From assembly GCA_965287045.1 (NCBI GenBank), contig OZ336876.1, positions 82,460,001-82,524,000 on the forward strand: 64,000 bases of DNA, read 5' to 3'. Position numbers and translations under genes: made by a program. Positions within the stretch are counted from its first letter, which is position 1; the number at the start of each line of letters is the position of its first letter. Positions 4,071-62,270 of the stretch are shown piece by piece. Source of the DNA: Carcharhinus amblyrhynchos. Its lineage: Eukaryota. The notes under the pieces are model-generated. The model made no database searches. It saw nothing but the letters and a program-made list of their open reading frames with translations, and was not told the origin of the DNA.

Positions 4071-6050
4071 AATTAGTTTTGAATTTTGCAAACTAGGCAG
4101 ATCCAATGAAAGTATTTTGCAAGCTATTGTGTACAATAAGATTTTAATCTATTTTAAATTGTGTTTTAAGGTGGCTGTTAATCATTTTCAAAAGAAAATA
4201 ATTATTGAGCTGTAGTCGTAAGGTTAAAAGGGATGTTTTTATTTCAAGAACACCACATGTGATCCATCTGGATTATTGCAATTCTCTGCTTTATAACTCA
4301 AACTTGTGTACCATATGCTGTTCACATTTCCTTTATTCTAAGTTCTGACTTTTATGGGCTGATTTTTTTTCACTGAATTCCATGGCATTCAAGGGGCTTA
4401 TGGCTTTCCCTTTTTTTTGAGAAGTGCTGCACAATAGATTTTTTTTCATACTGCACCAGTAATGTGCAGCACATTAGTCACCTCAAAGTGACAAACTAGT
4501 TCCCTATAATATGGATGGTTGCCTCTGAAAGGCATTTTTTTCCATGAACAGATGTGACAATTTGCCACTTCCTTCTGGGCACCTAGTTTCTATGTCCAGC
4601 TGTAATAGTCAGGAAGGCTGTGAGTCTGTTCCTAGAACATTCCAGTTACTTTGGAAGGTTCTGATATCATTTGATTGCCTTTCTAACAAAGCTGTTCCAT
4701 TTATGCTGTATGTGGATTCAGCAACGTTTGTACAGCTGCTCTTAAGTGAATTTTGCTCCTGTTCAGTTAAATGGAGATGTAAATATGCTGTGATGCCACA
4801 CCCCATCCCTCCCTTTGCAGGGAGGGGGAGCATGGTATTGCGCTTGATTTTCAGGGGAACGCTACTGCAGTCAATGATTTTAACCTCTTCAGGAAGGTCT
4901 ACATGGGACAGTAATGATGAAGGAACGTTGCTGGTCTGCACAGTTGCACTGAAAACTCAAATCTAAGATGATGAATTTTGGTCTAAATGGACTATCAGTT
5001 GCAGCAGCTGTATATTTACTGTCCACTTGCATGTAGTGGTTGGAAATACGAGGCAAAATACCCTCAGAAGGTTCTTTTATTGCTTCCATTAACACAGATG
5101 GCACTCTACAAGATTGTCCCAATGCTAACTAATCTGTTCCCTTTAGCACTAGTGGACCTTGTGATATTTTTTAAGATTATATCCTGCTTTTGTTGCTATC
5201 TATTATTTGCAAAGATTTGTTTGATCTTGCAAATGATGATTGCAAGTTGTTGATGCTTTTGAATTTGTGCAGGGAACATATTTGAGCATTTGACTTTCAA
5301 ATCATACAGAAATTTCATGGTCAGCTTTGCTCCCTGGTAAGAGGGAACCATGGTTGCTTCCTCTGGGTGGAATGTGATTTTTGCTTATAATACACTTTCT
5401 GATGGTTGGCCTTGTGAGAATGCTTTATAAAATTAAGGATTTTAAGAACCTGTTCCTTGCCATTGTTGATTTTAAATTTATTTGTGGATATAAGTTTTGA
5501 AGCTATGTCTTTATATAATGTGAATTATAAAGTGGAAACAGAATACTACTTTTAAGCCTGACTGTGTTTTACAATGATCAGTTATAGTATATCAGAGTGA
5601 AATGATTAACCAGTCTGAGTTGTCTACACTTGAGTAAACAATGGCTATTGTCTAAGTTTTGACCTCTTGAAAAAAGGTGAAATCTAGCAAAATGCATGCA
5701 TCCAAGTAGCATTTCTATTTGAACTTCGAGGCGTTAAAGAAATGAGGAAAATTTAAATTCAGCCAGAGCTATAAATGTGATGCAATTGGCATATGGAAAT
5801 AATGAGTTCATACTAGTTGTAGCCTGCACCATAAATATTTCGGTCCTCGTTTTTGTTTCTGGTCATGGAAAGGACCTGTAAAATTGTTTTCATTTATAAT
5901 GAAGTGCTTTGCATAGGTTTTAAAAAGACAGTAGGGGGAGGGGGGGTGGTTTGTGGGGGAATAATGACAATCAAGCACTGGAGGGAGGCAGAGGAACACT
6001 GTCCCATTAGCTGACCCTTTTTTTTCCCCCCTGCATACAATTTTTGTATA

Positions 6051-6468
6051 CTATAGCCAAGTTCTGCACAGGATGGCCTCAGCTGGGATCTTGGGTTCAT
6101 GTTGCACTATCTGTAAACCCCCCTGCCCCCATGACTTGTCTGGGTTCGCAAAACCTCACCTACTTTACTGTTTGGAGACAATACACATCTCTTTAACTTA
6201 TGCCTAATGTTCTCTCCACCCACATTGTCTGCATCTTTTAAGGCTTGAATAGCGGGTTAGCTGTAAAGACTCGTATTCGAATCAGTATTCTGTAAACTGT
6301 GTGTGCTGTTATATACTGTGTCTGAGACCAGAACTCTCCACTCACCTCACGAAGGGGCAAACCCTGAAAGCTTGTGGGTTTGCTATCAAATAAACTGGTT
6401 GGACTTTAACCTGGTGTTGTGACACTTATTGTGTTTACCTCAGTCCAACACTGGCATCTCCACATCAT
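6051..6468 (+). mobile_element. Penelope-like element 3' end: GIY-YIG endonuclease C-terminus plus pseudo-LTR with a degenerate hammerhead
   Basis: 6053-6116 reads IAKFCT/DGLSWDLGFMLHYL* across a small frameshift, resembling the PLE '..GLNRD.G' terminus. ctcacgaaggggcaaaccctgaaagc at ~6346-6371 is a mutated CUGANGA..GAAA core. Then AATAAA and the gttggactttaacctggtgttgt...agtccaacactggcatctccacatc tail. Confidence 0.8.
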
Positions 6469-8690: not shown

Positions 8691-8860
8691 GTTGGGCAGC
8701 TAAGTTGATTGGACAGTTGATTTTGAGGCAGAATGATACCGACAGCAAGGGTTCAATTCCCATACTAACTCAGGTGATTTGTGAAGGCCCTGCCTTCTCA
8801 CTCACTTGCCCCTCAGCTGAAGTGTGGTGGTCCCTGGGTTAAATTGCACCAGTCTGCCTA
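8690..8860 (+). mobile_element. tRNA-head SINE fragment
   Basis: gggttcaattccc B-box; body similar to 2340-2620. Confidence 0.45.
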
Positions 8861-8861
8861 T

Positions 8862-9155
8862 AGGGTGGCTCAGTGGTTAGCACTGCTGCCTCATGGCGTC
8901 AGAGACTCAGGTTCAATTCCGGCCTCAAATCACTGTCTGTGTAGACATTCTCCCCATGTCTACATGGGTTTCCTCTGGGTGCTCCAGTTTTCTCCCACAG
9001 TCCAAAGATATGTGGGTTAGCTTGATTTGGCCATGCTAAATTGACCCGAGTGTCAGGGGATTAGCAGGGTAAATATGTGGGGTTATGTGAATAAAGCCTG
9101 GGTGGGATTGTGTTCAGTGCAGATTCATGGGCTGATGGCCTCCTTCTATGATTCA
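8862..9155 (+). mobile_element. V-SINE (HE1-like)
   Basis: A-box gtggctcagtggttagc, B-box ggttcaattcc, V-domain ttctccccatgtctacatgggtttcctctgggtgctccagttttctcccacagtccaaaga, and a CR1-like 3' tail. Confidence 0.9.
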
Positions 9156-9654
9156 ACATGGAGTACTGATTCACCACCAGTGGTAGGATGCATTTTGTAG
9201 TAATTAGGTGATTTATCCTTTCATATCTGACCTGATAAGGTAAAACATAGGAGCAGAATTCGGCCACTTGGCCCATTTGAGTTTGCTCTGTCATTCAATC
9301 GTGCTGATATTTTTCTCATCCCCATTCTCCTGCCTTTTCCTAATAATCCCTGCTCCCCTTATTAATCAAGAACCTACCTATCTCTGCCTTAAAAACACTC
9401 AATGACCTGGCCTCCCAAAGCCTTTTACAGCAAAAAGTTCCACAGATTCACCACTGTGGCTCCTCATCTGTTTTAAAGGATCTTCCCTTTTTAGCCTGAA
9501 GTTGCGCACTCTGGTTCCAGTTTTTCCTACTAGTGGAAATATCCTTTCCATGTCCACTCTATGCAGGCTTCACAGTATCCTGTAAGTTTCAATCAGATCC
9601 CTCCTGAATCTTCTAAACTGAGTGCAGACCCAGAGTCCTCCTCATTCCTCATAA

Positions 9655-12600
9655 GAACATAAGAAATAGGAGCAGGAGTAGGCCATCCAGCCCTTCGAGC
9701 CGGCCCGCCATTCAATAAGATCATGGCTGATCTGTCGCTGCTCAGTTCCACTTTCCCGCCCTCTTCCCATAATCCTTAATCCCCTCTCCTATCAAAAACC
9801 CATCAACCCGCGTCTTAAAAATATTTAGTGAGGCAGCCTCCACCACTTCAACGGGCAGAGAATTCCAGAGATTCACCACCCTTTGAGTGAAGAAGTTCCT
9901 CCTCAACTCCGTTCTAAACCGCCCTCCTTTTATCTTGAGGCTGTGCCCCCTAGTCCTACTGTCTGTTTTGAGCGGGAAGAGTCTTTCCACCTCTATCCTA
10001 TCCATCCCATTTATCATCTTGTACGTCTCAATGAGATCTCCCCTCATTCTTCTAAACTCTAACGAGTACAAGCCCAGTTTATTCAGCCTCTCGTCATAGC
10101 TCAACCCCCTCAACTCCGGTATCAGCCTAGTAAACCTCCTCTGCACTCCCTCCAAGGCCAAAATATCTTAGCGCAGGTGCGGCGGCCAAAATATCTTTGC
10201 GCAGGTGCGGCGCCCAAAACTGCACACAGTACTCCAGCTGCGGCCTAACCAATGTTCTATACAGCTGCAGCAAGACCTCCCTACTTTTATATTCAATCCC
10301 CCTCGCTATGAAGGCCAGCATCCCATTCGCCTTCCTGACCACCTGCTGCACCTGCAAGCTGGGTTTTTGCGACTCATGCACAAGGACCCCGAGGTCCCTC
10401 TGCACCGTCGCCTGCTGCAGTTTTTTGCCCTGTAAGTAATAGTCCTTCCTACCATTATTCCTACCAAAGTGGACCACCTCACACTTGCCAACATTAAATT
10501 CCATTTGCCATTTCCTGGCCCATTCGCCCAGCCTATCTAGATCCTTCTGCAGACTCTCCACACCCTCCGCACAATTTGCCGTTCCCCCAGTCTTGGTGTC
10601 ATCAGCAAATTTCGACACTCTACACTCGGTTCCCTCCTCCAGATCATCTGTATAAATGGTAAAAAGCTGAGGCCCCAGCACCGACCCCTGGGGCACTCCA
10701 CTAGTCACCATCCGCCAATCCGAATAGCACCCATTGACCCCCACTCTCTGCCTCCTATTTGACAACCAATCCTCTATCCACGCTAACACCCTACCCCCAA
10801 CTCCATGTCCCTCGACCTTCTGCAATAACCTCTTGTGAGGTACTTTGTCAAACGCCTTCTGAAAATCTAGAAAGACCACATCCACCGGCTCTCCTCTATC
10901 CACCGCCCTAGACACATCCTCATAGAACTCCAGTAAATTTGTCAGACACGACTTCCCTTTAATGAAACCGTGCTGCGTCTGCTCTATCAAGCAATTCCCT
11001 TCAAGATGCCTCGCAATTTCCTCCTTAATGACAGATTCTAACATTTTACCTACCACAGACGTTAAACTAACCGGCCTATAATTCCCCGCCTTTTGCCTGG
11101 CACCCTTCTTAAACAACGGCGTAACATTAGCCGTTTTCCAATCATCCGGCACTTCCCCGGAATCCAGCGACGTCTGGAAAATAACCACCAAGGCATCCAC
11201 TATCACCTCCGCCATTTCTTTCAGAACCCTCGGATGCATTCCATCCGGTCCTGGGGACTTGTCCACAATCAGCCCCTCCAGTCTGTCGAGCACTGCCTCT
11301 CTAGTAACAGTAATGTCATTAAGACCCTCCAGTCCTACCACCTTTCCATCGCTAACACCCGGCAAATTATTCACGTCCTCCTCCGTGAAGACAGAAACAA
11401 AAAAGTTATTCAATACCTTAGTCATATCCCCATCCCCTACCACTAGGTCCCCTTTCTCATCCTCTAAAGGACCAACATTCACCCTAGCCAGCCTCTTCCT
11501 TTTTTATATATTTATAAAAACTCTTGCTATCCTTTTTTATATTAAGCGCTAGCCCAGCTTCATAGTTTCTCCTACGCTTCTTTATCAACTTCTTTGTCAA
11601 TCTTTGTTGACATTTAAACCTCTCCCAATCCTCTTCTCGCCCACTACTCTTAGCTACTCTAAATTCCTCTGCTTTTAGTTTAACACTTTCCTTCACCTCC
11701 TTCGTTATCCACGGCTTATTACCTCTCCTCCTACTATCCTTTTTGACCATCGGAATAAATTTCCGCTGAGCACCAAGAAAGATCTCCTTAAAGATCCTCC
11801 ACTGCTCCTCAACAGACCCTCCCTCCAACGCGCTCCCCCAGTCCACATTCGCCAATTCTTCTCTCATCCTACCATACTCCCCTCTATTCAAACAAAGTAC
11901 GCGTGTCCGGGAACCCACTTTCTCCTCCTCCATCTGCACCAGAAACTCCACCATACAATGATCACTCTCCCCAAGAGGATTCTTCACCGCAAGGTCCCTA
12001 ATTCTACCCGCCTCATTACATAACACCAGATCCAAGATAGCTCGCTCCCTCGTCGGCTCCAACACACACTGTTCGAGGAAACTATCCCGGCAGCATTCCA
12101 AGAACTCTTCCTCGAGCCCCCCGCGTCCAACATGGGTCGACCAATCAATATGCAGATTGAAATCCCCCGTAACTACGGCCGTCCCATTCCTGCACGCCGC
12201 ACTTATTTGCGCGTTAACAGCCCGCCCCACCTCCAGATCATTATTCGGGGGCCTATAGACGACACTCACCAGCGTCTTCCTCCCTTTGCTGTTCCTAATC
12301 TCCACCCACAATGATTCCACCCTCTGCTCCTTGGCTCCAATATCATCCCTTGCTACCACCGTGATGCTATCCTTAATCAGCAGAGCTACGCCCCCCCCCC
12401 CCCCCCCCCCCCCCCAATTAGTTTAAAGCCCTGTCTACAGTCCTCTTTACTCGATTCGCCAGCACTCTGGTCCCAGCACGGTTCAGACCAACCCCATCCT
12501 GCCCGAACAGGTCCCACCTACCCCAATAATGGTGCCAATGCCCCATAAATTCAAACCCATTCCTCCCACACCAATCCCTGAGCCACCCATTCACTTCCTT

Positions 12601-12715
12601 AATCCTGTCAACCCTACGTCCGTCTGCACACGGTTCAGGCAGTAGCCCAGAGATAACCACCTTGTCGGTTCTACTTTTTAATTCCATTCCCAGCTTCTCA
12701 TACTCCCTCCCCAGA
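9655..12715 (-). mobile_element. Young CpG-rich CR1 LINE, 5'-truncated: ORF1 esterase tail plus ORF2 (APE endonuclease + RT), disabled
   Basis: ORFs 11484-12359 (YRPP, GDFN, SDH endonuclease motifs), 10127-11482 (NYRPVSLTS, LDFQKAFD, GVPQGSVLGP, FADD) and 9742-10161; (TTCTTATG)n tail; 9-bp TSD tcctcataa at 9646-9654 and 12716-12724. Confidence 0.97.
12418..12715 (-). pseudogene. CR1 ORF1 C-terminal SGNH/GDSL esterase-like fragment
   Basis: VVISGLLP...VNGWLRDWCGRNGFEFMGHW...DGVGLNRAGTRVLA...ALN* matches the CR1 ORF1 esterase end; the usual DGLHL motif reads DGVGL. Confidence 0.85.
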
Positions 12716-13229
12716 TCCTCATAAACTAAGCTCTTCATTCCAGGGATGATTCTTGTGAATCTCCTCTGGACCCTTTCTAAGGCCAGTACATCTATCCTTA
12801 GGGGGCTCAAAATTGCTCTCAGTACTCCCAAATGGGGTCTGACCAGAGCCTTGTATAGCCTCAGAAGTACATCCCTGCTCTTGTCTTCTAGCCCTCGCAA
12901 CATGAATGTTAACATTACGTTTGCCTTCCTAACTGCTGACTGAACTGGCACGTTAACCTTAAGAGAATCTTGAACAATGACTCCCAAATCCTTTTGTTTC
13001 TGATTTCCTGAACGTTTCCCCATTTAGAAGATAGTCTGTGCCTCCATTCATCCTTCCAAAATGCATAACCTCACACTTTTCCATATTGTATTCCACCTGC
13101 CACTTTGCCCACTCTCCTAACCTGTCCAAGTCCTTCTGCAACCCCCCACTTCCTCCAATAATACCTGCCCCTCCATATATTTTTGTATCATCTGCAACTT
13201 AGCAATAGTGTCATCAGTTCCTTCTTCCA

Positions 13230-13810
13230 ATGATGCTATGAGACTTCATGGAGTCAAGAGTTGATGTTGACAACTTCTAGGGCAATGCCTTACTGCCACC
13301 ACTCTTCGGTGGGTCTATCTTATTCTGTTGACAGGACAGCAATCGTGATGATGCTGTCTGGCATGTGTATGGAATTGTACGTTATAAACAATGCCAGGCT
13401 GTGGAACAATCCTTGAGATGTTCATAAGGAGGACTTTATGGGATCAATGATGATGAATTTGTCATTTTTTTTCTGGTGTTTAGGAAACTGTGAATGATCC
13501 ATTTGGCTTCATTTCTTTCTGTAAACTTTTGTAGTAATTTAATACAACTGAGTGACTTGATAGGCCATTTCAGATGTCATTTAAGAGTTGACCACGTCAC
13601 TGTGCATCTGAAGCCATATATATAGACTAGACCAGGTCAAGACATCAATAAATGAGATGGGTTTGTATGCGAGTTATCATTGGTTTCACGGTCACTGCTA
13701 CTGAGACTAGCTTTTAATCCCAGAGTTATTCATTGAATTTGAATTCCAATTGCTTTGGTGGGATTCAAACCTATGGATTATTTGGCCAATGACATCACTC
13801 TGCCAACACC
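13230..13810 (-). mobile_element. Family-B LINE fragment followed by a SINE
   Basis: tgatgctatgagacttcatggagtc is shared with 54743-54768; 13540-13810 is the reverse complement of the 18097-18460 SINE type. Confidence 0.55.
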
Positions 13811-15879
13811 TCCCCAAATGGATGATTTGACAGCTAAGGTTGGGGAGAAATTCTTGTCTTGCAAAAAGCTGCTTTCCTTGCCTCCAGCTGCTGAGAATTC
13901 CAAGCCTGACCAGGAAAATTTGTGACCCTGCTAATGAGGATAGCATAGTATCTTATTCACTTGAGCATTCTGTTGTTATTTAGAATGACATTTAATTATA
14001 TTCTTAACAAAGCTCACTTCATTTATCTGTACGGTAAAGCAGCTTAATCTGTGGTCTCCAATTCTCCTATGTGTGCAAGACATGATACTTAGGTCAGATG
14101 ATAAACTCTTAGGTTGTTTTTACATATTGTTGACAGTCAAGTGAAACTCTTAGCATATTGATGCTTGAGGCTGTCTTGAAATCTAATTTTTGTACCTTGG
14201 GTGGATACAAAGCTGGAAAATATTACTGAATGTGAGAATTGGACCTCATCAAAATTGAGCTACGTTCACTATAGAATCTTGCAGGATTGACTTGACTTAT
14301 TTGGCCCTTGGATTGGTCTGTTAATCAAATACTGGGGTGTTAATTGTAATTGGCTAGCTTGTCAAATTAGGCACCTGAGTATTCGTGGTGAAGTTTTGAG
14401 CCTTTCTGGTGGAATGCCTTGAGGACAGATTGTGAACAGATTTGGTGCACTTGTTAATTATGAGTGGAAAATAACTGCAGGAATTGTATCTTGTGTATGA
14501 GCTACAGCTGTGTGTGCTAGAAATTCTAAGCATTGGCTTTATTCATACCACTGGCGTTGCTGCTGCAGAAATAGAAAACCCCATGAAGGGCAGTATTCTC
14601 AACTTGGAATGTGCCGTTCGGAAATAAGACTGTTGGTTGTAATCTCAATTTGCTAGGCTGAGCAGTTACAACTTCAGTTGCATTATGTCATTCAGAGTAT
14701 CTATGATAGTCTGTGTGCAGCCATAATATCACCTTGCATAGCCTGAAGAATTGATTCACTTGGTCAGTGCTTCTCTTTCATATTCTGTGTGTATCTTGAT
14801 GCATTTTGTAGGACAGTGTTTTGATTTGGGAACAATTATTGATTCAAAAGCTTTTAAATCCAGGACATTGTGATCTCCATCATTTGGGAGGACACTATAC
14901 CTCTGCAAAATGCATGTGTTAAGTACAAGATGGTTACAATTGTAAATGTTTTCTCATCTTCTGTAAGAGACAGCGGAGAAAACATTGCAAATTTTGAACA
15001 AATGTTTGTCTGGATTGTAATGAAGCACTGCAAGTGGTTAGATGAGGGAAAAGATTAAGTTACGGAAACTTCTTTTTCCGAGGCATCCAGGGTTATTTGT
15101 CTATCCAAGCTGAGCATAATTTATCAGATTAAAATAGTTTACATATGTATTTAGCCAATGTTGCCAAGGCAAGGAGTTAATGTTTTATTGTGGAAATTAC
15201 GTGTCAGCCATTAGGAGATGAATATTTATGGACCTCACCCAAGCCACATGCATATGGCTGTGTTTGCATATTTGCCTGTTGAGACTGTCAAAGTTGTCCT
15301 TAATTTCCCACGCTGAGATTGCCAAGCCATCTTTCAGATTTCCCTGCCTCCTGATGTGGTCAGACTACTGACTCACATGGGGTTTCTGCTCCAACACAGT
15401 TGCTTGTCCCTTTTTAGAAGAATATTTTAATAACTGCTGGCTTTGTAATTCCTGTAACTATTGGGAATAATGCAAAGAATACAAATCCTTTTTAGTAGTG
15501 ACTTATACAAAAAGCAAAAGAAATTACAGAAATTTCAAATGCCAGAAACACACTGAATGCAAGGTGTTCAACATGAGCCCTTTTCATGTTTTTCTTTATC
15601 ATGAATTTTGTTAGAAACTTGTATCGCTAAACTTCTACCTCCATTTCCTTTTTCCATCAATACCCTGATTCAAGTTTAATTTTCCATCTGCCAGCATTCT
15701 CCATCAGACACCAATGCTTGGTTCGAAGAGTGCAAGGAGAGAAGGTTCATGTGAATAAATCTTTGACATAGAGTAGTTAGCCAAGCGTAAAGGATCTTGG
15801 GCTTCACAAGTAGCAGTATTGATTTTAAAAGTCGGCAACTTCTGAGCCTGCATAAATCTCTAGTGATTTCCCCAGCTAT

Positions 15880-17210
15880 AGAACACGACAGCATAGAAAC
15901 AGGCCTTTTGGCCCTCCTTGGCTGTGCTGAACCACTTTTCTGCCTAGTTCCACTGACCTGCATCTGGACCATATCCCTCCACACCCCTCTCATGCATGTA
16001 CCTGTCCAAGTTTTCTTTAACTAAAAAAAAATGAGCCTGCATTTACACTTCATCTGACAGCTCATTCCACACTCCCACCACTCTGTGAACTCCCCCCCCG
16101 CCCCCTGCCAATATTCCCTTTAAACTTTTCCCCCTTCAACCTTAACCCATGTCCTCTAGTTTTTTTCTCCCCTAGCCTCAGTGGAAAAAGCCCGCTTGCA
16201 TTCTCTCTATCTACACCCATCATAATTTTATACACCTCTATCAAATCTCCCCTCATTCTTCTACACTCCAGGGAATAAAGTCCTAACCTATTCAACCTTT
16301 CTCTGTAACTCAGTTTCTCAAGTCCCAGCAACATCCTTGTAAACCTTCTCTGCACTCTTTCAACCTTATTAATATCCTTCCTGTAATTCAGTGACCAAAA
16401 CTGCAAACAATACTCTAAATTCAGCCTCACCAGTGTCTTATACAACCTCACCATAACATCCCAACTCTTGTACTCAATACTTTGATTTATAAAGGCCAAT
16501 GTTCCAAAAGCACTCTGACCCTATCTACCTGTGACACCACTTTTAGGGGATTATGTATCTGTATTCCCAGATCCCTCAGTTCTACTGCACTCTTCAGCAT
16601 CCTACCATTTTACCTTGTATGTTCTACCTTGCTTTGTCTTTCCAAAGTGCAATACCTCATACTTATCTGCATAAAACTCCATCTGCCAATTTTCAACCCA
16701 TTTTTCTAGCAGGTCCAAATCCCTCTGCAAGCTTTGAAAACCTTCCTCGCTGTCCACTCCACCTTCAATCTTTGTACCATCAGCAAATTTGCTGATCCAA
16801 TTTACCACATTATCATCCAGATAACTGACATAATGACAAACAACAATGGACCCAACACTGACCCCTGTGCACACCACTAGTCACAGGCCTCCGCTCAGAA
16901 GCAATCCTTCTCTATCACTCTCTGGCTTCTTCCATTTGAAAAAATCTGACAACACCAGGTTTTAGTCCAACCGATTATTTGATAGTAACTATCAAATAAA
17001 TCATTTACTATCAAATAAATCGGTTGGACTAAAACCTGGTGTTGTCAGACTTTTTACTGTGTTTACCCCAGTCCAACGCCGGCACATTCACATCATTCTT
17101 CCATTGATCCAATGTCTAATCCAATTTACTACCTCCATGTATACCTAGCAACTGAACCTTCCTAACTAACCTTCCATGCAGGACCTTGTCAAAGACTTTA
17201 CTGAAGTAGT
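15880..17210 (-). mobile_element. CR1 LINE ORF2 3' portion, with nested PLE mini-insertion
   Basis: ORFs 16062-16499 (LYKTLVRLNLEYCLQFWS..RMRGDLIEVYK), 16602-16877 (SKFADGTK) and FSKVFDKVLHGRL. Confidence 0.92.
16937..17095. mobile_element. PLE mini-insertion, head-to-head hairpin plus 3' tail
   Basis: ~50-bp inverted arms (aaatctgacaacaccaggttttagtccaaccgatt../..aatcggttggactaaaacctggtgttgtcagacttttt); 10-bp TSD ttcttccatt at 16927-16936 and 17096-17105. Confidence 0.88.
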
Positions 17211-20389: not shown

Positions 20390-23300
20390 GTTGCCTTTCG
20401 AGCGAGTGGTTGCAGATTTGGAGGGTGCTGCCTAAGGAACCTTGAGTTCCTGCAATGCATCCTCTAGGTAATGTACATGGTTGCCATTGTTCATTAGTCA
20501 TGGAGGGATTGCCTGTTTGTGGAAAAGGTAGCAATCAAGCTGGCTGCTTTTGTCTTGAATGGCATTGAGCTTCTTGAGGGTTGTTGGAACTGCAGTCATC
20601 CAGACAAGCGGAGAGTATTCCATTACACTGCTGACTTGCTCCTTACAGATTGTGGACAGTTTTGGGGAGTTGGGAGGTGAATCAGTCACCATAAGATTCC
20701 TAATCTTTGACCAGCTCTGGTAACCACTGCATTTATGTGGCAAGTCCAGCTCAGTTTCTGGTTGATGGTAATTTCGAGGAGGATGATTGTGGAGGATTAA
20801 GTGATGGTAATGCCATTGAATGTCAAAGGGTGATGGTTAGATCCTCATGTCAGATGGTAGTTATCTGGCACTACTAGGGTGCAAATGTTACTTGTCAGTC
20901 CGAGCCTGAATATCATCCAGGTCTTGGCTATATTTGGATATGGACTGCTTCAGTATCTAGGAGTGTCAAATGGTGCTAAACATTGTGTAATCACTTGCAA
21001 ATATTCCACTTCTGATCTTATGTTGGAAGGAAGATCATTGAAGCAGCTGAAGACAGTTGAGCCTAGGGCACTCCCTTGAACATTTGCAGTGATGTCATGG
21101 AACTGAAATGATTAACCCCAAACCATCACAACAATCTTCCTTTGTGCCAGGTATGATTTTAGTGTCTCTTTAAGAAAGGTTTTTTTAAAAATCATGCTCA
21201 CAGCCTTGGTGGGAGGAGAAAAAGTATGCTGGTCAGGTGACAGGGGTTTTTAGTTTTGTTTTGACTGCAGTGTTAGAAGCATTGCTGAAAGAAGTCTTTT
21301 TTTTAAGTTTTACCAACTAGCTGAAAGCACAATTTGCTGTCCTGCAGTAAAGAATCTGTTTTGGTTTTGAGGAGCTGACGACTACGAGGTGGAGGTTTTC
21401 AAGATCATTTGAAATCAACTTTCAACCTAGGGTACTGGATTCCAGCATCATGTGAGCTTTAGCTTGTGCAGTGATAAATCTATTGAAGAGTTTTGTTTAT
21501 TAAATGTTGGTTTTGATTGGTTAAGAGTTATACATTATTGTGACAATGTTGTTTTCACTTGTAATTGATAAAAGTTCTTGTTAATTTTCTTACTATACAT
21601 GTTAACTATATTCTTTGATAGAAGCTCTCTCGTGGGTTACTTGAATTATACCTGAAATGAAACATTTCCTGCCTATCCTAGCCAAATACAAGATGCAAAA
21701 CTTGTAGTTCAGGTAAGTTTCATGAAACACTTCTTTGTAGTTTCTGACCTATACCATAACACAGATATGACTTCAACCAGCAAAGGGTTTTCCCCCGATT
21801 CCCATCAACTCCTGCTTTGCTGTGATTCTTGTTGCAATACTGGGTCAAATGCTACCTTTGTTGTCAAATTAAGTCACTCCCATCTCACCTTTTGACATTC
21901 AGATCTTTTCTTGATATTTGAACCAAGGCTATAATGAGGTCAGGAGCTGAATGACCCTAGCAGAACCCAAACTGAGCATTCATAAGCAGGTTATTGCAAG
22001 CTTGACAAGACTGTTGGTGACCCCCTCCATCACTTGCTGATGGAGAATAGACTGATGGAGCGCTAATTGCCTGGGTTGGATTTGTCCTGTTTCTTGTATG
22101 CAGGACATACCTGGCAATTTTCCACTTTGCCAGGTAGATACCAGTATTGTAGCTGTATTGGAACTGGTTGTCTGAACTTAAAATGGTGAAGATGTGGACA
22201 GAGTAAATTTTGTTTGTTTGTTACAAGTTCTTAGGCAGTCATCAGCCTCTGCAAACTCGGAACTTCGAATTGATCTTGGAGACAAAACCCATCTTCACAT
22301 TGGAGTATATCCTCCACTGTGTTGTGTAGCACAAACAGTGTGCTAAATGGAGAGACTTCCAGGTCTAACAACTCAAGACTGGGCAACCATGAAGTGTTGT
22401 GGGCCATTAGCAACAGCAGAAATGTATTCAACCACAATCTGCAGCCACATGGTCTGACATATCCCCTACTCTGCCATGACCACCAAGCTAGGGAAGCAAC
22501 CCTGGTTCAAATAAGAGTGCAGGAGGGCATACCAGGAGCAACACCAAGTATATCTAAAAATGAGGCGTTAACCTGAAGCTACAGCACAAGACTACTTGAG
22601 TGCCAGACAGTATAAGCAGCAAGTAATAGAGAGCTAAGAGCTTACAAACTAATAGCTTGGCTTGGGGCATGGCAAGTTTTGGAGTGCAAGTCTTCAGTAC
22701 TATTGTCAGAGTCCAAAACTTTTGCAGAATCCAGTTTTTTTAGCCATTTCTCAATAGTGCGTGGAGTGAATTGGATTTGGCTAAAGACAAACACTGGAGA
22801 TGCTGGGGACCTCTGGAGGAAGCCCACTTGGTGCTTCTGGCTGAAGTTTGTTGCTAATGCTTTAGCCTTGCCTTTTTCACAGATGTATTGGACTCCTGCA
22901 TCATTAAGTAGATAGATTCTTGTGGAGTCTCCAGTGAGTTGTTTAGTTGTTCACCACCATTCATGGCTGGATGTGGCAAAGCTTAGATTTCAGCTATTAG
23001 TTTGGAATCTCTTAGCTCTCTCTATTACTTGCTGCTTATACTGTTTGGCACTCAAGTAGTCTTGTGCTGTAGCTTCAGGTTAACGCCTCATTTTTAGATA
23101 TACTTGGTGTTGCTCCTGGTATGCCCTCCTGCACTCTTATTTGAACCAGGGTTGCTTCCCTAGCTTGGTGGTCATGGCAGAGTAGGGGATATGTCAGACC
23201 ATGTGGCTGCAGATTGTGGTTGAATACATTTCTGCTGTTGCTAATGGCCCACAACACTTCATGGTTGCCCAGTCTTGAGTTGTTAGACCTGGAAGTCTCT

Positions 23301-23390
23301 CCATTTAGCACACTGTTTGTGCTACACAACACAGTGGAGGATATACTCCAATGTGAAGATGGGTTTTGTCTCCAAGATCAATTCGAAGTT
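20390..23390 (-). mobile_element. Family-B CR1/L2-like LINE, interrupted by an LTR-like insert and an inverted duplication
   Basis: Peptides QVSSVMEYSPLVW and IEKWLKKLDSAKVLDSDN; homologous to 6480-8690 and 38070-39380. Confidence 0.75.
21157..21763 (+). mobile_element. LTR-like insert
   Basis: Starts near tgtctctttaagaaag and ends ..cataaca; flanked by the imperfect repeat ggtatga/gatatga, across which the host LINE is collinear. Confidence 0.55.
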
Positions 23391-23488
23391 CTGAGTTTGC
23401 AGAGGCTGATGACTGCCTAAGAACTTGTAACAAACAAATAATATTTACTCTGTCCACATCTTCGCCATTTTAAATTTGGACAACCAGT
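22163..23488. repeat. ~495-bp inverted duplication (arms 22163-22657 and 22992-23488, spacer ~334 bp)
   Basis: Identical mirrored ORFs 22319-22576(+) and 23075-23332(-); arms aligned by eye to both ends. Confidence 0.95.
23398..23474 (-). repeat. Internally deleted 3' LTR (23398-23458) and polypurine tract (23459-23474) of the Gypsy element
   Basis: Termini tgcaga..tccaca; shares acttgtaacaaaca..tatttact with 28071-28098; the minus strand reads ttaaaatggcgaaga|TGTGGA. Confidence 0.6.
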
Positions 23489-25159
23489 AGTGTTGAGATG
23501 TGATAGAATATGTGAACAGTAACTGGGTCCAAACCATTTTATGCTATATAGATTGAACAAGCTATCATTGCATAATTATTTGTATTTGTTGAAACACATA
23601 TTAAGCTGGTGCATAGTTTGTCTCCTTTCACCCTTACTCCTTGAGTAAAGATGAGATCTAAAAGATAACAACTTAATTGGTGACATAGTGCTGGAACCTT
23701 TTCTGTATGGTCACGTGCCCTGAGGATGAGAGATTGTGTTGGTTGGCTATGCTATAATTTTACTCAAGCTGGTGTCCTTAGTGTGGACCACCTGCAGAGT
23801 TCCATCAGTGTACTAGTGGGTGCAAGGCTCATTATGTAAGTGCTGGAGGTACCTCCGTGTCCATTAGTGTAGGAGGCCTGTGCTGTGGGCTAGATGATTG
23901 GGGTGTTGTGGTATCTGTTCATGCTGGTTCTGATACCTGTAATAGGTGACCGCAGTTTATAATTGGCACTCTAAGGCTACTGCACAACTATTAGTCTGTG
24001 GGGCAAGGCTATCTATTACTGCCAACTTATCATGGTCACATGTTCTAGATCCTGGCTATTTTCCTAGGTGTTAAAGGGGCTGAGTCTATAGGTATTGTGA
24101 TCATAATATGTTTTGCTTCTTAGCATTCCATGAGGATGCCATTCACATTGGTTTCGGGTTTTGGCAGTCAGAATTGTGGTCCTGGTGTCCCTAGAAAAGA
24201 GTCATTGTGCTGCCTTGGCAGATTTTTGCAGGCCATGAAGTACAGCATCTGTGCAATTCTGGCATATTTCTCTGAAGATGCTTAGCTGAATCTGCCCATT
24301 CCACCAGGCTGTTGGTTTGTGGGTACAAGGGGCTATTCATGACGTGCTCAAAGTCCCATTTGTGTGAGAAGTTTTGAAATTCAGTAGGGACAAATTGGTG
24401 AGAGTTGTCTGAGGGGTGCAGTGTGTGGTGAGGTGTAACTTTTTTTATTGCTGACTGTTACTCAATCATATGTGGTAAGTAGTTGAGATCAAACCACCTG
24501 GAATATGAGCTAAGACCAAATGTTTATCATTCCATTTAAAAATGTCAGCTTCTGTGAATGACCATAAGTGGCTTGGGACTTCATACACATGCAGTGGTTC
24601 TTTCACTTGATGCAGCTTGACTGCATTGCGTTGTGCATATCTGGAAACTTCCTTCTTCTTGTCAGCTTGTGTGGAGGGCCAGTATATTGATTCCTTGGCA
24701 CTGTATCTGGCTGCTTCCATCTCAAGGTGCAGTACCTCTAAAGGTAAGTAGAAATGATGAATTGCTCGCTGAGAGTTCTTGTCATGAAGACCACTCTGCA
24801 GTGCTCTTGTCAGCAGTATTAGATGTCCTGGTGCAGGCACTGAAGTCCAGTGATTTCACCACAATGAAGTTAGAAAGATAGTTTGCCCTTCCAAAGGAGT
24901 GTTGTAAAGCATGCTTGCCCACCAGATGGCCGTCGGTCACATGGTGGTTGTTATGTCTAGATCTGGCTTTGTATCACCAACTGAGAGTAAGTCACCTACA
25001 TAAGGAACCTTATTCACTCTACATTTTGCAGAGTTTTCAGCTGCATGATCCTGATTCTGTCGAACATACATAAGGTGTATCATGTTTTTGCACAGTATGA
25101 CCCCAAACCAAGATGTCATTTAGCAATGATTTTGCATGGCCTGCACAGGGTTGTTTCAT

Positions 25160-25737
25160 TAAGAACATAAGAACATAAGAACATAAGAAATAGGAGCAGG
25201 AGTAGGCCATCTAGCCCTTCGAGCCTGCCCCGCCATTCAATAAGATCATGGCTGATCTGTTGTGGCTCAGTTCCACTTTCCCGCCCTCTCCCCATAACCC
25301 TTAATCCCCTCTCTTATCAAGAACCCATCAACCCGCTTCTTAAAAATATTTAGCGAGGCAGCCTCCACCACTTCAACGGGCAGAGAATTCCAGAGATTCA
25401 CCACCCTTTGAGTGAAGAAGTTCCTCCTCAACTCCGTTCTAAACTGCCTCCCCTTTATCTTGAGGCTGTGCCCCCTAGTCCTACTGTCTTTTTTGAGCGG
25501 GAAGAGTCTCTCCACCTCTATCCTATCCATCCCATTCATCATCTTATATGTCTCAATGAGATCTCCCCTCATTCTTCTAAACTCTAACGAGTACAAGCCT
25601 AGTTTATTCAGCCTCTCCTCATAGCTCAATCCCCTCAACTCCGGTATCAGCCTAGTAAACCTCCTCTGCACTCCCTCCAGGGCCAAAATATCCTTGCGCA
25701 GGTGCGGCGCCCAAAACTGCACACAGTACTCCAGCAG
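25160..25737 (-). mobile_element. Young CR1, 5'-truncated, inside Gypsy RT
   Basis: ORF 25267-25722 is near-identical to the 9742-10230 region; tail (taagaaca)x3; no TSD visible. Confidence 0.95.
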
Positions 25738-25811
25738 CGAAGTCTTCTAGCAGTGCGAGATCCTCATGGCGCACACAAAGAAAATGATATCTGCTTACTG
25801 GAGACACGCAT

Positions 25812-26654: not shown

Positions 26655-26801
26655 GATCAAAGATAGGAGAGGGGATTAAGGGTTATGGGGAGAGGGCGGG
26701 AAAGTGGAACTGAGCAGTGACAGATCAGCCATGATCTTATTGAATGGCGGGGCAGGCTCGAAGGGCTGGATGGCCTACTCCTGCTCCTATTTCTTATGTT
26801 C
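26655..26801 (+). mobile_element. Young CR1, extreme 3' end only
   Basis: Reverse complement of 9655-9795; ends ttcttatgttc; interrupts Gypsy RT. Confidence 0.93.
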
Positions 26802-26903
26802 ACTCTGCTCAAATGCACTAGATTAATGCATTTCCTGACTCTGCCATTTTTCTTCACTGCGGACACCATTGTTGAAACTCATCCTCTGGTTTCATTTATG
26901 TTG

Positions 26904-27042
26904 TAAAAAGTCTGACAACACCAGGTTTTAGTCCAACCTATTTATTTGATAATATACTCACTAGCTTTCGGGGTTACCCCCTTCGTCAGGTGTTGTCAGA
27001 CTTTTTACTGTGTTTACGCCAGTCCAACGCCGGCATACCCAC
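26904..27042. mobile_element. PLE mini-insertion with inverted arm carrying a hammerhead core
   Basis: 13-bp TSD ttcatttatgttg (26891-26903, 27043-27055); inverted repeat taaaaagtctgacaacacc/ggtgttgtcagacttttta; 3' tail. Confidence 0.9.
26958..26992 (-). ncRNA. Minimal hammerhead ribozyme core (PLE-type)
   Basis: Minus strand reads CAC-CUGACGA-AGGGGG-UAA-CCCC-GAAA-GCUAGUG: conserved CUGANGA and GAAA boxes flanking a GC stem II, with a short self-complementary segment in place of stem III. The 5' strand of helix I is truncated by the junction. Confidence 0.72.
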
Positions 27043-28019
27043 TTCATTTATGTTGGCCATGATATCTAGTGTCATCATCTGATGCAGCTCATTGACTGAC
27101 TACTTTCTGCCTCATGACTGTTGATGCTCTTCTTTGAGCACAAAAAATGTTGATAGCACCGAGTCACCTAGTTTCATGCCATTGTGGTGGTATTTGTAGT
27201 TTCCCAATGAAGTCATAATTGCATTCTATCATTTCTGGGGCCTGTTGTTACACAGCATGCATTTCTGACCAAGTTGGATGAGCCCCAATGTAATGCTGTC
27301 CCAAAGACCTAGTAATGCTCGTGCATTCTCAACAAGTGTATAAAACTTGAAATGACCCTGTGTGCTGTGCGCAGTGGCCACAACTTCCGTGTGGATGGTT
27401 TGTCCACCATAAGCCACAATGTCTGTCTGAGGGCTGGGTTCTGGTACTGCACATGTTTCTAATTCTTGTAACTTACAACTGTTTACGACTTTGCTCAACT
27501 GTCAATGTTTATTTTCAGTCTTGCTGCAAATCATGTTCAGGATTGTGAAAATCTCCCCCTTTTTCTGTGATGTTGACACTCTCTCAATATTGTTGTTTTG
27601 AGGCTCAGCAATTTGGTTACTTTAGCTGAGCTCCAATATGTTTACCTTGTTGATGGTCCCAACCTTGGAGGACTGACCTAGCTACAATGTGGCTTGTTGC
27701 AAAGGAAGGATGCAAAGGTTTCAATGTGCAGCATTTTGTGAAATGATTCCACTTGCCACATATTGGCATCACTTACCATGTGCCAAACATGCGGTTCTGG
27801 TGTGATGGCTACCACATTTGGGATAGTGCCTGAACTGCAAAAACTTGTTTCCTGCCTAAAGTAAGTTTAGAAAGGTGTAAGCTTTACCTTTTTTTCCAAG
27901 TTGTCAAATAATACAGCAATGCAGTAAATGTGACACTCTTTCTCACCTTTGTCCAACCATAATATTTTGTTGAAAAAGAAGCAGGTTGATGCGGCAAAAC
28001 TCTTGTGTACCTATTGTCA

Positions 28020-36400: not shown

Positions 36401-37559
36401 AAACTTGTTTATACTTGCTCTGTGTGCATCCACCTATAGTTACTTTCAATACTGTTTACCAGCTTGCATCCCTGTAATATAGCTTCTGAATCACGTTGCT
36501 TTTAAGTATTTTTTTTAAATAAGGCTCGATCTTAACTCGGCCCCTGAGGGATAATCTTGAGCTACATCCAATCCTCTATCTTGTTGTTCAGAACTGGACA
36601 CGACCTGACAAGTGGTTTTGTTAGTATTTCAATTTCTAATTCTACTGGGTCAATTTCTGTTAAACCTTGGACCTTAGATTGAAATATACCAAGAATAATT
36701 GTGTTAATCACGAGTAGTTAGCAGCTTGTTTTCCCCTATTTAATGCAATTTGTTTTGACAGAACTATGATACTGACTCCAAATAAATTTTAGCTGTCTGC
36801 CTATATTTAAGCAATAGGCATATTTATGCTTACTTCACTCTAGTGGTGGTGCCAATTTTGTCACGAAGATGTTTTACTGCCTGCTGTTTATAGCATGGTG
36901 ACGTACTTGATTATTACCATATTGAAACAGTGGCAGGTTTTTTTGTTACTGTCAGAATTTGAATTACAAGCCATAATATCTATAGTGTGTTCTTTTGACT
37001 AAATTGCAAAGTTGAAATAGTAATTTAAAGACTAGTGGAAATTTTCGGGTTGAGGTTTGTACCAAAGCCAAGAAGAGCCTCTTGAAAACTTTTAAGTACA
37101 ACTATGCTACACAAGTGAGCCAATTATTTTATTGTATGGTTTAACTTTTAGCATGCAACTTCAAGATGTATGTAGTCACTTGGGTTTAATCACTTGGGTA
37201 AAAACTTTCAAATAATGTTACTCAAAATGTAAGGAATAGTTTTTAATTACCATTTTGCTAAAATACACTAAAACATCCAAGACCCAGAAATTATATGGAA
37301 AGAGGTATTGGGATTGGTCCATTATGTTGGAAGTTGAGTGGAAATAGAAAGAAAGCTAGCCTCTTTCATATCAAAAATTGCTAAACCAACTCTTTATGCG
37401 TGCTATGAGCTTGACCATGATCGGACTACTTACCTCATTGCTGTAGACCACCTCAGAGAGTTCTTGACATGATACATATATTTGGGCATCATTGTTCTTG
37501 TCTGTCACTTCAAATTTCAAATTGTCTAAAGTTCTGGGTGAAATGTGCTGTGAAGGGGA

Positions 37560-37934
37560 ATGGCCAGGACCAAACAGCTCGCAAGTCCACCGGAGGCGAA
37601 GCCCCCCCGCAAGCAGCGCCCTGGTGACCAGCGACGTGAAGAATCCTCACGCCCCTGCACTGTAGCCCTGCGGAAGATCTGCCGCTACCAGAAGTCCACT
37701 GAGCTGTTGATTCGCAAACTGACTTTTCAGTGCCTGGTGCGGGAGATGGCCCAGAATTTCAAGAATAACTTGTGCTTCCAGAGGTCAGCCATCATAGCCT
37801 TGCAGGAGGCCAGTGAGGCTTACCTGGTGGGGCTCTTAAAGGACACCAACCTGTGCGCCATTCACGCCAAGCGGGTCACCACCATGCTGAAGGACGTTCA
37901 CCTGGCCTGCTGCATCCGTGGGGAGCATGCCTGA
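37560..37934 (+). pseudogene. H3: Histone H3 pseudogene (isolated; canonical H3.2-like ancestry)
   Basis: MARTKQ start; [53 protein letters not shown]. Frameshifts and a deletion in the N-terminal tail, many CpG-type substitutions (R>C, R>H), no intron, no 3' stem-loop. Confidence 0.95.
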
Positions 37935-51600: not shown

Positions 51601-52442
51601 TAATTCTATATAATTACTTAAACCAGTAAGCAAGAATGATTGTACTAATTGCTTCCTGCTTTTACTCACTAAAATGCTCCATTTTAATACAAAAAAATTA
51701 AATTTGTTTGACATGCACCTGAAGTGTAACTCCAGTTGATACAACACTGGGGTGGGTATACATTCGGAAGATATGGATGCAAATTGAAATTACTGCCTCC
51801 TTGAAGCTTACTTAGCAGGAGGAGATCGCTTATGGGAAATGGGAGACCAGGAGCTGAGCAACATGGTTGGAGCCCAAAATAAATGTCAGTGAACAGGTTA
51901 TCATTAAACAAGTGCTGCTTGATGGCACTGTTGATGACTCCTTCCATCACTTTACTGATGGTAGGAAGTGGACTGATTGGACATTAATTGGTCAGGTTGG
52001 ACTTGTCCAGGGTATATCCAGGACATGAGTAAGCAATTTTCCATATCGCCAGGTAGAAGCAATGTTATATTGGAACAGCTCGGCTAGGGGGCACGACAAG
52101 TTCTGGAGCTCAAGTCTTCAACATTTTGTGAATATTGTCAGCATCCATCAGCTGTTTCTTGATTATCATTTGAAATTAATTGAATTGGCTGAAGACTGGC
52201 ATTTGTAATACTGGAGACCTCCAGAGGATGCTGAAATCATTTAGTTTGCATGTCTGTCTGAAAGTTGTTGCAGATGCTTTTGTGCTAGTGAGCTGGGCTC
52301 TCCCTCATTGAGGTTGGGAATATTTATGAAACCTTCTCCAGTGAGTTGCTTAATCATTTTAAATTAGGACCCTCTTTATTCTGCGACTGCCCCTGGTCCT
52401 ACATTCTTCCATAAGTGGAAACATCCTTGGAGCATTTACTCT

Positions 52443-54547: not shown

Positions 54548-54591
54548 TAAAAAGTCTGACAACACCAGGTTTTAGTCCAACCTATTTATTT
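54548..54591 (-). mobile_element. 44-bp PLE mini-insertion
   Basis: taaaaagtctgacaacaccaggttttagtccaacctatttattt is identical to 26904-26947; 7-bp TSD gacgctg (54541-54547, 54592-54598). Confidence 0.9.
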
Positions 54592-60489: not shown

Positions 60490-62270
60490 CTATCCTGCCT
60501 TTTAAATATATTTAGTGATGGAGAATCCACAACCTTCTGGGATAGAGAATTCTAGAGATTAGCAACCCTTTCAGTGAAGTAATTTCTCTATATTTCCATT
60601 CTAAATGACCAGATTTCCCGACCAGTGGAAGCAATCACTCAGTGCTCAGCTTTATAAGAAGCCTTCAGAATTTTCATGGAATCATGTAGCACAGGAGAGG
60701 TCCTGTGGTCCATTTGAGTCCACACTGATGCATTAAAAACACCTAACACCCACCTAATTCTATCTGCCAGCACTTGGCCTGTAGCCCTGAGTGTTATGAT
60801 GTGTCAAGTGCTCATCCAGATTCTTTTTAAAAGGATGAGACAACCTGCCTCCACCACCCTCCCAGGCAGCGCATTCCAGACTGTGTCACTACTGAGTAAA
60901 AAAGTTTTTCCTCATATCCACCAGCATCCCCCCCACCCCCCCTCCCCCTCCCCCCAAACCTTCTGTCCTGCACTTTGAACTTATATCCCCTCATGACTGA
61001 CCCTTTAAGGGGAATAGCTGCTACTTATCTGCTCTGTCCATCTCTCTCAATCTTGTCTCAATCAGGTCACCCCTCAATCTTCTCTGTCCCATCAAAAACA
61101 ACTCAAACCTATCCAACCTCTCTTCGTAACTTAAATGATCCAGCCTAGGCAGCGTTCTGGTAAATCTCCTCTGCACCCCCTCCAGTGTACTCGTATCCTT
61201 CCGATTTAATGTGGCGATCAGAACTGCGCACAGTTCTTTTGCTGTGGCCTCAACATTCTATACGACTTCTCTGCTTTTGTAATCTATGACTATAAATCTA
61301 ATCTATAAATGTAATCTAGGTTGGACTAAAACCTGGTGTTGTCGGACTTTTTACTTTGTAATTTATGCCTCAGTTGATATACAGACTAAATATATGCCTT
61401 TTTCACCACCCTAGATGTCAATGAGATATGTCATTCCTCGAAACTCCAGAAAATATAAGCTCAGTTTACTCCGCTTCTCTTCCTAGGACAACTCTCATTG
61501 TGGGAACAATTTCATGGAATCTTTGCTGTACCATCTCCAATATGAGTATACCCTTTCTTGAATTTAAAGACCAAAACTGCACATCAGTGTCCCGCCAAAA
61601 GCCTGTAGAACTGTAGCAAGACTTAGTTATTCTTTATAATCACCTTTCAATAAAGTACATTTGTCATTACTAATTCCATTTTTCTTCCAAATTTGTAGCT
61701 GCACTTGCATGCTAACCTTCTGCATTCCTTATACAAGTACATCAAAGTCTCTTTGAACATCAATTCTTTAAGACTTATACTTTTTAAAAAAAAAGCTGCT
61801 TTTCTATTTTTACCACCAAAGTGAATAACTTCATATTTTCCCTACGTTATACTCCATCTGTCATCTCACCTAACCTGCTTGTTTCTCTGCAGTCTATGCT
61901 GTCCCCAAAGTTTACCTTCTGTTGTAGCTTGGTGTCAAATATCTCTTTATCCAAGTCATTAATATAAATTGCAAATAGCCATGGCTCTGACACTGATACT
62001 TGTGGCACCCCAGAAAGCACTGCCCGCCAATCCTTTTTATGTCCACTCTCTATATTCTTAACTAATCCTCTATCCATACTGATATATTGTCCCCAAATCT
62101 AAGCCCTTATTTTGCCCATTAATCTTTTATGTGGAGCCTTACTGAATACCTTTTTGTTTTTGAAAATCTAGATCTACAACATCCGCTGGTTTCCCTTTTT
62201 CTAGCATGCTAGCTACATACTCAAAAACTAATACCTTTGTCAAACACCTTTAGTAAAATTATGTTAACTT
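60490..62270 (-). mobile_element. Nested decayed CR1 fragments
   Basis: SGVPQVSVSEPWLFAIYINDLD (61847-62077); a second CR1 3' end at 60675-61410 is nested in the older copy. Confidence 0.8.
61317..61354 (+). mobile_element. 38-bp PLE mini-insertion with filler DNA
   Basis: taggttggactaaaacctggtgttgtcggactttttac; imperfect TSD ttttgtaatctatg / ctttgtaatttatg. Confidence 0.82.

Follow-up and report, generated by a model that had tools for sequence, protein, structure and literature searches.

The insertion and its surroundings

Between positions 26904 and 27042 of the window, the whole 64,000-nucleotide stretch of Carcharhinus amblyrhynchos DNA that was analysed, lies a 139-bp insertion flanked by target-site duplications, as an earlier note on this DNA had claimed; the duplications are 13-bp direct repeats (Table 1). 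It is built of two head-to-head arms, one read on the minus strand from 26992 to 26904 and carrying a hammerhead core, the other read on the plus strand from 26989 to 27042. The minus arm is identical to an older copy of the same family near 6.4 kb in 72 of 89 aligned columns. Five copies of the family with seven arms are present in the window, and the insertion under study is referred to below as the 27-kb copy.

Table 1. Features of the 27-kb insertion and other family copies, in window coordinates.
Feature	Position	Strand	Basis or remark
Left target-site duplication, 13 bp	26891..26903	+	Single copy in the empty site of run X5
Inverted, tail-less, 5'-truncated pLTR arm with hammerhead	26904..26992	-	3' end at the family's inner end hotspot
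AAUAAA in A/U-rich stretch 3' of the hammerhead	26941..26946	-	Sequence
Helix I 3' strand GUGAGU, complete	26956..26961	-	Pairs with the family's 5' strand
Predicted cut site, between N17 (26962) and G1.1 (26961)	26961..26962	-	Descriptor match and variants
Catalytic box 2 GAAA, then GC and U16.1	26963..26969	-	Sequence; dimer model as in PMC4209133
Unpaired A, then stem II GGGG/CCCC (4 bp) with loop GUAA	26970..26982	-	Pair probability 0.96–0.97
Catalytic box 1 CUGACGA (C3–A9)	26983..26989	-	Sequence and descriptor
GGTG, 4-nt overlap of both arms at the inversion junction	26989..26992	.	Sequence
Forward arm, 20 nt, perfect inverted repeat of 26903–26922	26989..27008	+	Repeat search
Remnant of helix I 5' strand, CAC (positions 2.3–2.1)	26990..26992	-	Family letters from loose ends (4 of 4 runs) and 6340–6345
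34-nt 'tail', plus arm only	27009..27042	+	Second end hotspot at 27046–27047
Right target-site duplication, 13 bp	27043..27055	+	Direct-repeat comparison
Older tailed copy ('6.4-kb')	6046..6468	+	About 300 nt upstream of the hammerhead retained; degenerate ~10-bp duplication
Second inverted copy ('17-kb')	16937..17095	.	Tail on one arm, palindromic junction, 10-bp duplication
Solo tail-less arm, 7-bp duplication	54548..54591	-	Repeat comparison
Solo tail-less arm, possible 6-bp duplication	61316..61356	+	Repeat comparison

The inverted arm ends 3 nt upstream of C3, and the GGTG at the junction is common to both arms, just as the earlier note described. The letters TCAT that follow the T of the right duplication also match the end of the family tail, which leaves an uncertainty of ~5 nt as to where the element stops and the duplication starts; the family tail extends to ~27047 if this overlap is included.

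Contigs from 4 of 24 sequencing runs (X1, X5, X6 and X7) were aligned on 26810–27260. The X1 contigs span both insertion junctions without a mismatch, and X1 may be the sample from which the window derives. In X5, one contig (record 9) joins 26810–26890 directly to 27043–27260 with a single duplication copy, and record 24 of X7 likewise skips the insertion; for X6, a piece of the right flank alone is listed at this site. The empty site was seen in two other organisms, with flanks diverged by about 1–2%. The X5 flanks differ at only 4 letters and 3 gaps in ~300, suggesting that the 27-kb insertion is young. Small depth bumps at 27082–27129 and 27210–27260, present in all four runs, suggest that the right flank contains additional low-copy repeats.

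Elsewhere in the window, 77 open frames (12 of 24 long and 65 of 121 shorter ones) were compared with Pfam, which revealed no host gene, only histone and LINE domains. With its CR1/L2-type LINE remnants the DNA has a vertebrate appearance. The histone match (37554–37934, plus strand; Pfam Histone, E 5e-31) is a degenerate H3-like frame with many substitutions and no correctly placed start, and is probably a processed pseudogene. Young CR1/L2-type LINE copies, 92–96% alike, occupy 9650–13023 (minus), 25174–25746 (minus), 52363–53899 (plus) and 26662–26801, and the first of these retains long endonuclease and RT frames. A 497-bp inverted repeat, 97.6% alike with its halves 335 bp apart, lies at 22163–22657 and 22992–23488. 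A 129-residue frame at 24466–24855 (minus) gave no Pfam match; we take it to resemble a decayed LTR-retrotransposon integrase region.

The hammerhead core

The minus strand from 26989 to 26961 reads CUGACGA-A-GGGG-GUAA-CCCC-GAAA-GC-U-A-G, and the letters of CUGACGA and of GAAA-GCUAG are those given by the earlier note. Its stem II is also present, but its division of the stem was off by one: the stem is GGGG/CCCC with a 4-nt GUAA loop and a preceding unpaired A (26982, directly after A9), rather than GGGGG with a UAA loop, and G26981 and C26970 form the G10.1-C11.1 pair. The stretch A15.1-G-C-U16.1 is palindromic, and a 4-bp helix III is possible only between two copies. The assignment to the minimal type-I hammerheads of the PLE pseudo-LTR kind, whose palindromic 15.2-16.2 step permits a dimer helix III, was borne out. 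The NUH triplet is CUA, compared with CUU in most relatives. The core had been called intact, which applies to the catalytic boxes but not to helix I, which the junction has cut from the 5–6 bp of the family to 3 bp; family positions 2.4–2.6 are replaced by the complement of the other arm.

The published minimal-hammerhead descriptor (PMC4209133 Fig S7) was scripted and run on both strands of the window. The full descriptor gave one match, the 27-kb core, and any match appeared in 4 of 1000 dinucleotide shuffles; the bare boxes CUGANGA..GAAA occur at chance level (6 found, 5.9 expected). The 3-bp helix I is the descriptor's minimum (range 3–7 bp), and the 4-bp stem II also falls within the 3–7 bp that it allows for that stem. 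The hammerhead-model scan proposed in the earlier note had a divided outcome: the descriptor matches the core but the Rfam covariance models gave no hammerhead among 6 matches with E up to 5. Rfam hammerhead models need a helix III.

Family consensus and variation

The search for helix I and the cleavage triplet in the family consensus, also proposed earlier, located both: a helix I of 5–6 bp, and CUU or CUA. The loose ends of contigs behind 26992 (56–89 contigs per run, in 4 of 4 runs) read U, U, A at positions 2.4–2.6. These letters pair with A, G, U of the 3' strand, which, together with ACUCAC/GUGGGU of the 6.4-kb copy, gives the family its helix I of 5–6 bp. The decayed core reported for the 6.4-kb copy, CUCACGA and CCCUGAAA at 6346–6369, was found as described, with G5 changed to C, C11.1 changed to U, and a 6-bp helix I in which ACUCAC stands opposite GUGGGU.

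Variant tables were drawn from contigs at least 80% alike, and are weak near alignment ends, with low power near 26989. At N17 (26962), A is replaced by U in 75, 74, 43 and 96% of depth in X1, X5, X6 and X7, and this position varies only between A and U. Two loop-II sites vary, the variant at 26977 accounting for 83–99% of depth, and the family's majority loop starts with C. In stem II, 10.4 changes from G to A in 29, 20, 44 and 17% of depth (X1, X5, X6, X7), with no partner change listed. Helix I varies at 1.2 (13% of depth, X1 only) and at 1.6 (12, 28, 0 and 46% of depth in X1, X5, X6 and X7), again with no partner listed, and its variants are wobble-type single changes only. Compensatory double changes in helices I and II are absent from the table, which lists sites and not haplotypes, for copies at least 80% alike. 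Across 26956–26989, listed variants fall on 0 of the 13 fixed core positions and on 6 of the 21 others, a weak difference (Fisher p 0.06 two-sided, 0.04 one-sided), and none is listed at 15.2-16.2, at the A after A9 or at G10.1-C11.1. The metazoan PLE hammerhead consensus (PMC4209133 Fig S3) matches the family's letters at every position.

Copies and abundance of the family

On 26810–27260, 7,104–13,974 records per run were aligned in the four runs. The insertion is covered four to five orders of magnitude more deeply than its flanks, a figure that is not a copy number, and the family is very abundant. Long, mutually unlike loose ends (median 255, agreement 0.34–0.41) pile up at 26903 and at 27046–27047 in all four runs; these piles are the family's two 3' ends, without and with the tail, and the same two 3' ends recur across the five window copies. 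In the 17-kb copy, neither arm reaches the hammerhead, each stopping just 3' of it. This copy is a near-perfect hairpin plus a short tandem duplication, and it yields a spurious Rfam match to MIR5070 (59 bits, below the 100-bit threshold). Family sequence patterns gave no matches in the viral contigs, metagenome contigs and prokaryote genomes searched.

The 6.4-kb copy retains a frameshifted peptide remnant of 20 residues at 6053–6116 (IAKFCT in one frame, followed in the next frame by DGLSWDLGFMLHYL and a stop), which we presume to be like a PLE C-terminus. It showed no homologue and no Pfam family, and its motif is absent from the PMC8557442 supplement. No RT or GIY-YIG ORF was tied to the family, this frameshifted remnant being the only candidate coding sequence. 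An ATG lies directly after the tail end in the family's loose ends (27036–27050) and is a candidate ORF start at the pLTR-ORF junction.

The block GUUGGACU after AAUAAA is complementary to AGUCCAAC of the tail (26923–26937, minus, with 27020–27034; 6397–6456; 17022–17085), and all three tailed copies preserve this complementarity, with variable sequence in the interval. The block that follows, CUGGUGUUG, could pair with the bases immediately 3' of it, which would create a pseudoknot or switch around the inner RT start site. Such a structure would resemble the stem-loop at the start sites of the anole PLE. The first arm-tail stem is predicted, but its stability is not above that of shuffles (z -0.5 to -0.7).

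Origin of the insertion

We consider it very probable that the 139 bp represent a minimal insertion by an endonuclease-positive PLE with a standard minimal type-I hammerhead, of which this copy is a passenger. According to PMC3846280 and PMC8557442, PLE insertions have an inverted truncated pLTR, an optional tail of 30–40 bp, duplications of 8–10 bp and junction palindromes, and a 34-bp repeat is described in PMC2377424. The 27-kb and 17-kb copies show this layout, with an inverted 5'-truncated pLTR and a tail on one end, and the variable duplications (13, 10 and 7 bp) and the empty site in X5 and X7 fit it as well.

The element's protein would nick both strands of an A/T-rich target, 9–13 bp apart. 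Two cDNAs would then be primed from the family's two initiation sites in pLTR RNA, 34–39 nt apart, by analogy with the anole PLE; in anole Poseidon, the tail is the interval between two RT initiation sites, and cutting and extension take place on both target strands (PMC11167929). Different initiation sites for the two cDNAs would explain why one arm is tailed and the other tail-less. Both cDNAs would be cut short and joined head to head at the 4-nt overlap, the longer one having traversed the entire core on an uncleaved template before stopping within helix I. The minus arm crosses the cut site, so its template was uncleaved. The family hammerhead (helix I of 5–6 bp, stem II of 3–4 bp, no helix III, NUH of CUU or CUA) would cleave at most weakly, with dimer or protein help, in tandem full-length copies. 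The 27-kb copy, with its 3-bp helix I, its lack of a same-strand partner in the window and a predicted arm-arm hairpin holding C3, would merely be carried along.

The simplest reading of the junction is ordinary 5' truncation followed by joining at a short overlap. An unlikely alternative, compatible with insertion by a PLE as proposed above, is that the template RNA had its 5' end at or slightly upstream of helix I, at a start or processing site, and that RT ran off this end, the product being trimmed to the GGTG overlap. The 27-kb arm does end 3 nt upstream of C3, and an intron of D. virilis ends at the 5' edge of helix I (PMC4209133), but only one of the seven window arms ends there. Loose-end agreement is lower at 26992 (0.50–0.52) than at the internal break 26989 (0.60–0.68), and the consensus fades after ~17 letters; such fading, however, is also expected from contig bias. 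Moreover, the loose ends at 26992 are short (median 14–21) and run on into more family sequence, which the true ends (median 255) do not, and 26992 behaves as an internal point of the family and not as an end. We regard as unlikely the more specific proposal that the micro-insertions come from a short pLTR-only RNA that starts at or just upstream of helix I, with the hammerhead marking the template's 5' head, uncleaved and perhaps clamped by protein. If it were true, the 5' ends of copies would map the short pLTR RNA and test the role of PLE hammerheads directly.

The earlier note had instead proposed that RT fell off at the hammerhead structure, and this does not hold for the 27-kb junction. 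The arm copied the cut site, stem II and both boxes. RT, moving 3' to 5', meets the 3' strand of helix I and stem II first, and by 26992 all partners of the structure had already been copied, so that a stall is unable to explain the end of the arm.

That copies of the family are more generally shaped by RT halting at the folded hammerhead, or reaching the end of an RNA that the hammerhead has cleaved, is improbable. The 5' limits of the seven arms include two that cross the cut site, in the 27-kb minus arm and the 6.4-kb copy, against five that lie wholly 3' of it and start about 6, 7, 13–15, 22 and 40 nt after. The two nearest, at the foot of helix I, are both arms of the 17-kb copy, but these represent one event. 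One contig joint in X1 falls at 26961 (1 of the 12 listed of 131), which is too little to count, whereas the 15 joints listed of 176 all leave the arm at 26924–26943, at least 18 nt short of the cut site, and share 0–4 letters. No pile of loose ends occurs at 26961–26962 among the 24 listed of 860, depth shows no step across 26960–26962 in any of the four runs (contigs blur by ~31 nt), and the anole study detected no ends at its cut site (PMC11167929). For the 17-kb copy, RT stalling at the outer foot of helix I, or a cleaved template, may be conceivable.

Activity of the 27-kb copy

It is very improbable that the 27-kb copy is itself a working ribozyme when the minus strand is transcribed. 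All 13 fixed core positions are intact, the NUH triplet is CUA and stem II is perfect; the 3-bp helix I lies within the descriptor, several published examples have 2–3 bp (PMC4209133 supplement), and the helix is predicted at a probability of ~0.7 before the second arm is transcribed. In the fold predicted for the whole insertion RNA, however, the probability of helix I is 0.00, and positions 2.3–2.1 and C3 are held in a 20-bp arm-arm helix at 0.96–1.0 (C3 at 0.96), so that the finished RNA folds into an arm hairpin. Helix III is lacking and would have to come from a second molecule, yet the 64 kb contain neither a second descriptor match nor a same-strand partner: the 6.4-kb copy lies on the other strand and has G5 changed. 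For two core pieces, the dimer hammerhead form is predicted at -20.5 kcal/mol and the best joint fold at -27.0, placing the former 6.5 kcal/mol higher. Because of the fold prediction and the lack of a same-strand partner, the 27-kb copy is probably inactive.

Published work points the same way, and it bears as well on the earlier note's inference that self-cleavage processes the family's RNA, which stays hypothetical. Minimal monomers did not cleave and dimers cleaved poorly (PMC4209133); the dimer model of minimal hammerheads is stated in a review (PMC6765202). Of nine Xenopus dimers, one cleaved and eight did not (bioRxiv 10.64898/2026.07.22.740005). For the anole PLE, the one tested together with its protein, cleavage by the motif requires protein, mutating the hammerhead leaves insertion normal, the main substrate is uncleaved RNA, and RNA-seq gave no ends at the cut site (PMC11167929).

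A MITE-like DNA transposon or a chance hammerhead look-alike is scarcely credible, both being largely refuted: the 20-bp perfect inverted repeats plus duplication could recall a MITE, but the right repeat lies 34 nt inside the element end, duplication length varies (13, 10 and 7 bp), 3 of 5 copies are one-armed and junctions differ between copies, while the silence of Rfam and the chance level of bare boxes are outweighed by the rarity of the full descriptor in shuffles (only 4 of 1000) and by the family's upstream letters, which were not used in detection and complete helix I.

Comparison with known systems

In fishes, coelacanth and frogs, a genome carries thousands of minimal hammerheads in its PLE ends. 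The 27-kb find is an ordinary one of this known kind (Cervera and de la Pena 2014). A literature search by title and abstract returned the motif class and the layout as published and no description of this family; Lunse et al. 2016 and repeat databases lie beyond that search. A single copy matters little, and its value is as material for PLE hammerhead function in vivo. The family is very abundant and was recently active, as empty sites in relatives show, and its tiny two-armed insertions preserve the start and stop points of RT; counted across the genome, these ends would distinguish templates that are cleaved from templates that stall RT or have their 5' end at the ribozyme.

The core shares with the minimal PLE hammerheads (Cervera and de la Pena 2014, PMC4209133) the CUGANGA box, the extra nucleotide after A9, the G10.1-C11.1 pair, GAAA, the palindromic 15.2-16.2 step, the NUH triplet, the short helix I and the A/U-rich 3' flank. 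There, too, most motifs are solo ones in truncated copies. The turtle entry in its Fig S3 shares the GC-U-U step, and its sequence context on both sides is similar. Stem II is 3–4 bp here and 4–8 bp in most listed examples, and the 27-kb copy has lost helix I positions 2.4–2.6. Cartilaginous fish are absent from Table S1 and Fig S3 of PMC4209133, and PMC6155905 mentions sharks solely in connection with motif shape.

The non-LTR retrozymes (bioRxiv 10.64898/2026.07.22.740005), reported in the one chondrichthyan sampled as well, also have a type-I hammerhead and derive from pLTRs. They are described there as head-to-tail tandems, whereas the 27-kb copy is a solo inverted unit; a retrozyme tandem was rejected as its identity, there being no second descriptor match or tandem copy in the window.

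The insertion units of endonuclease-positive PLEs (Penelope of D. virilis and A. vaga Pen2a; PMC3846280, PMC2377424, PMC8557442) share with the shark insertion head-to-head truncated pLTRs, a tail of 30–40 bp on one end, duplications of about 7–13 bp and an overlap or palindrome at the junction. Unlike these units, the 27-kb insertion has no ORF or direct pLTR pair between its arms, and consists of only the last 89 and 54 nt.

In the Anolis carolinensis Poseidon PAc (Frangieh et al. 2024, PMC11167929), too, the tail is delimited by two end hotspots, with the hammerhead ~85–125 nt upstream of them, and A/T-rich targets and copies made from uncleaved RNA are common to both. The PAc ORF starts at stem II, whereas the shark family has no ATG there and carries one after the tail end in its loose ends.
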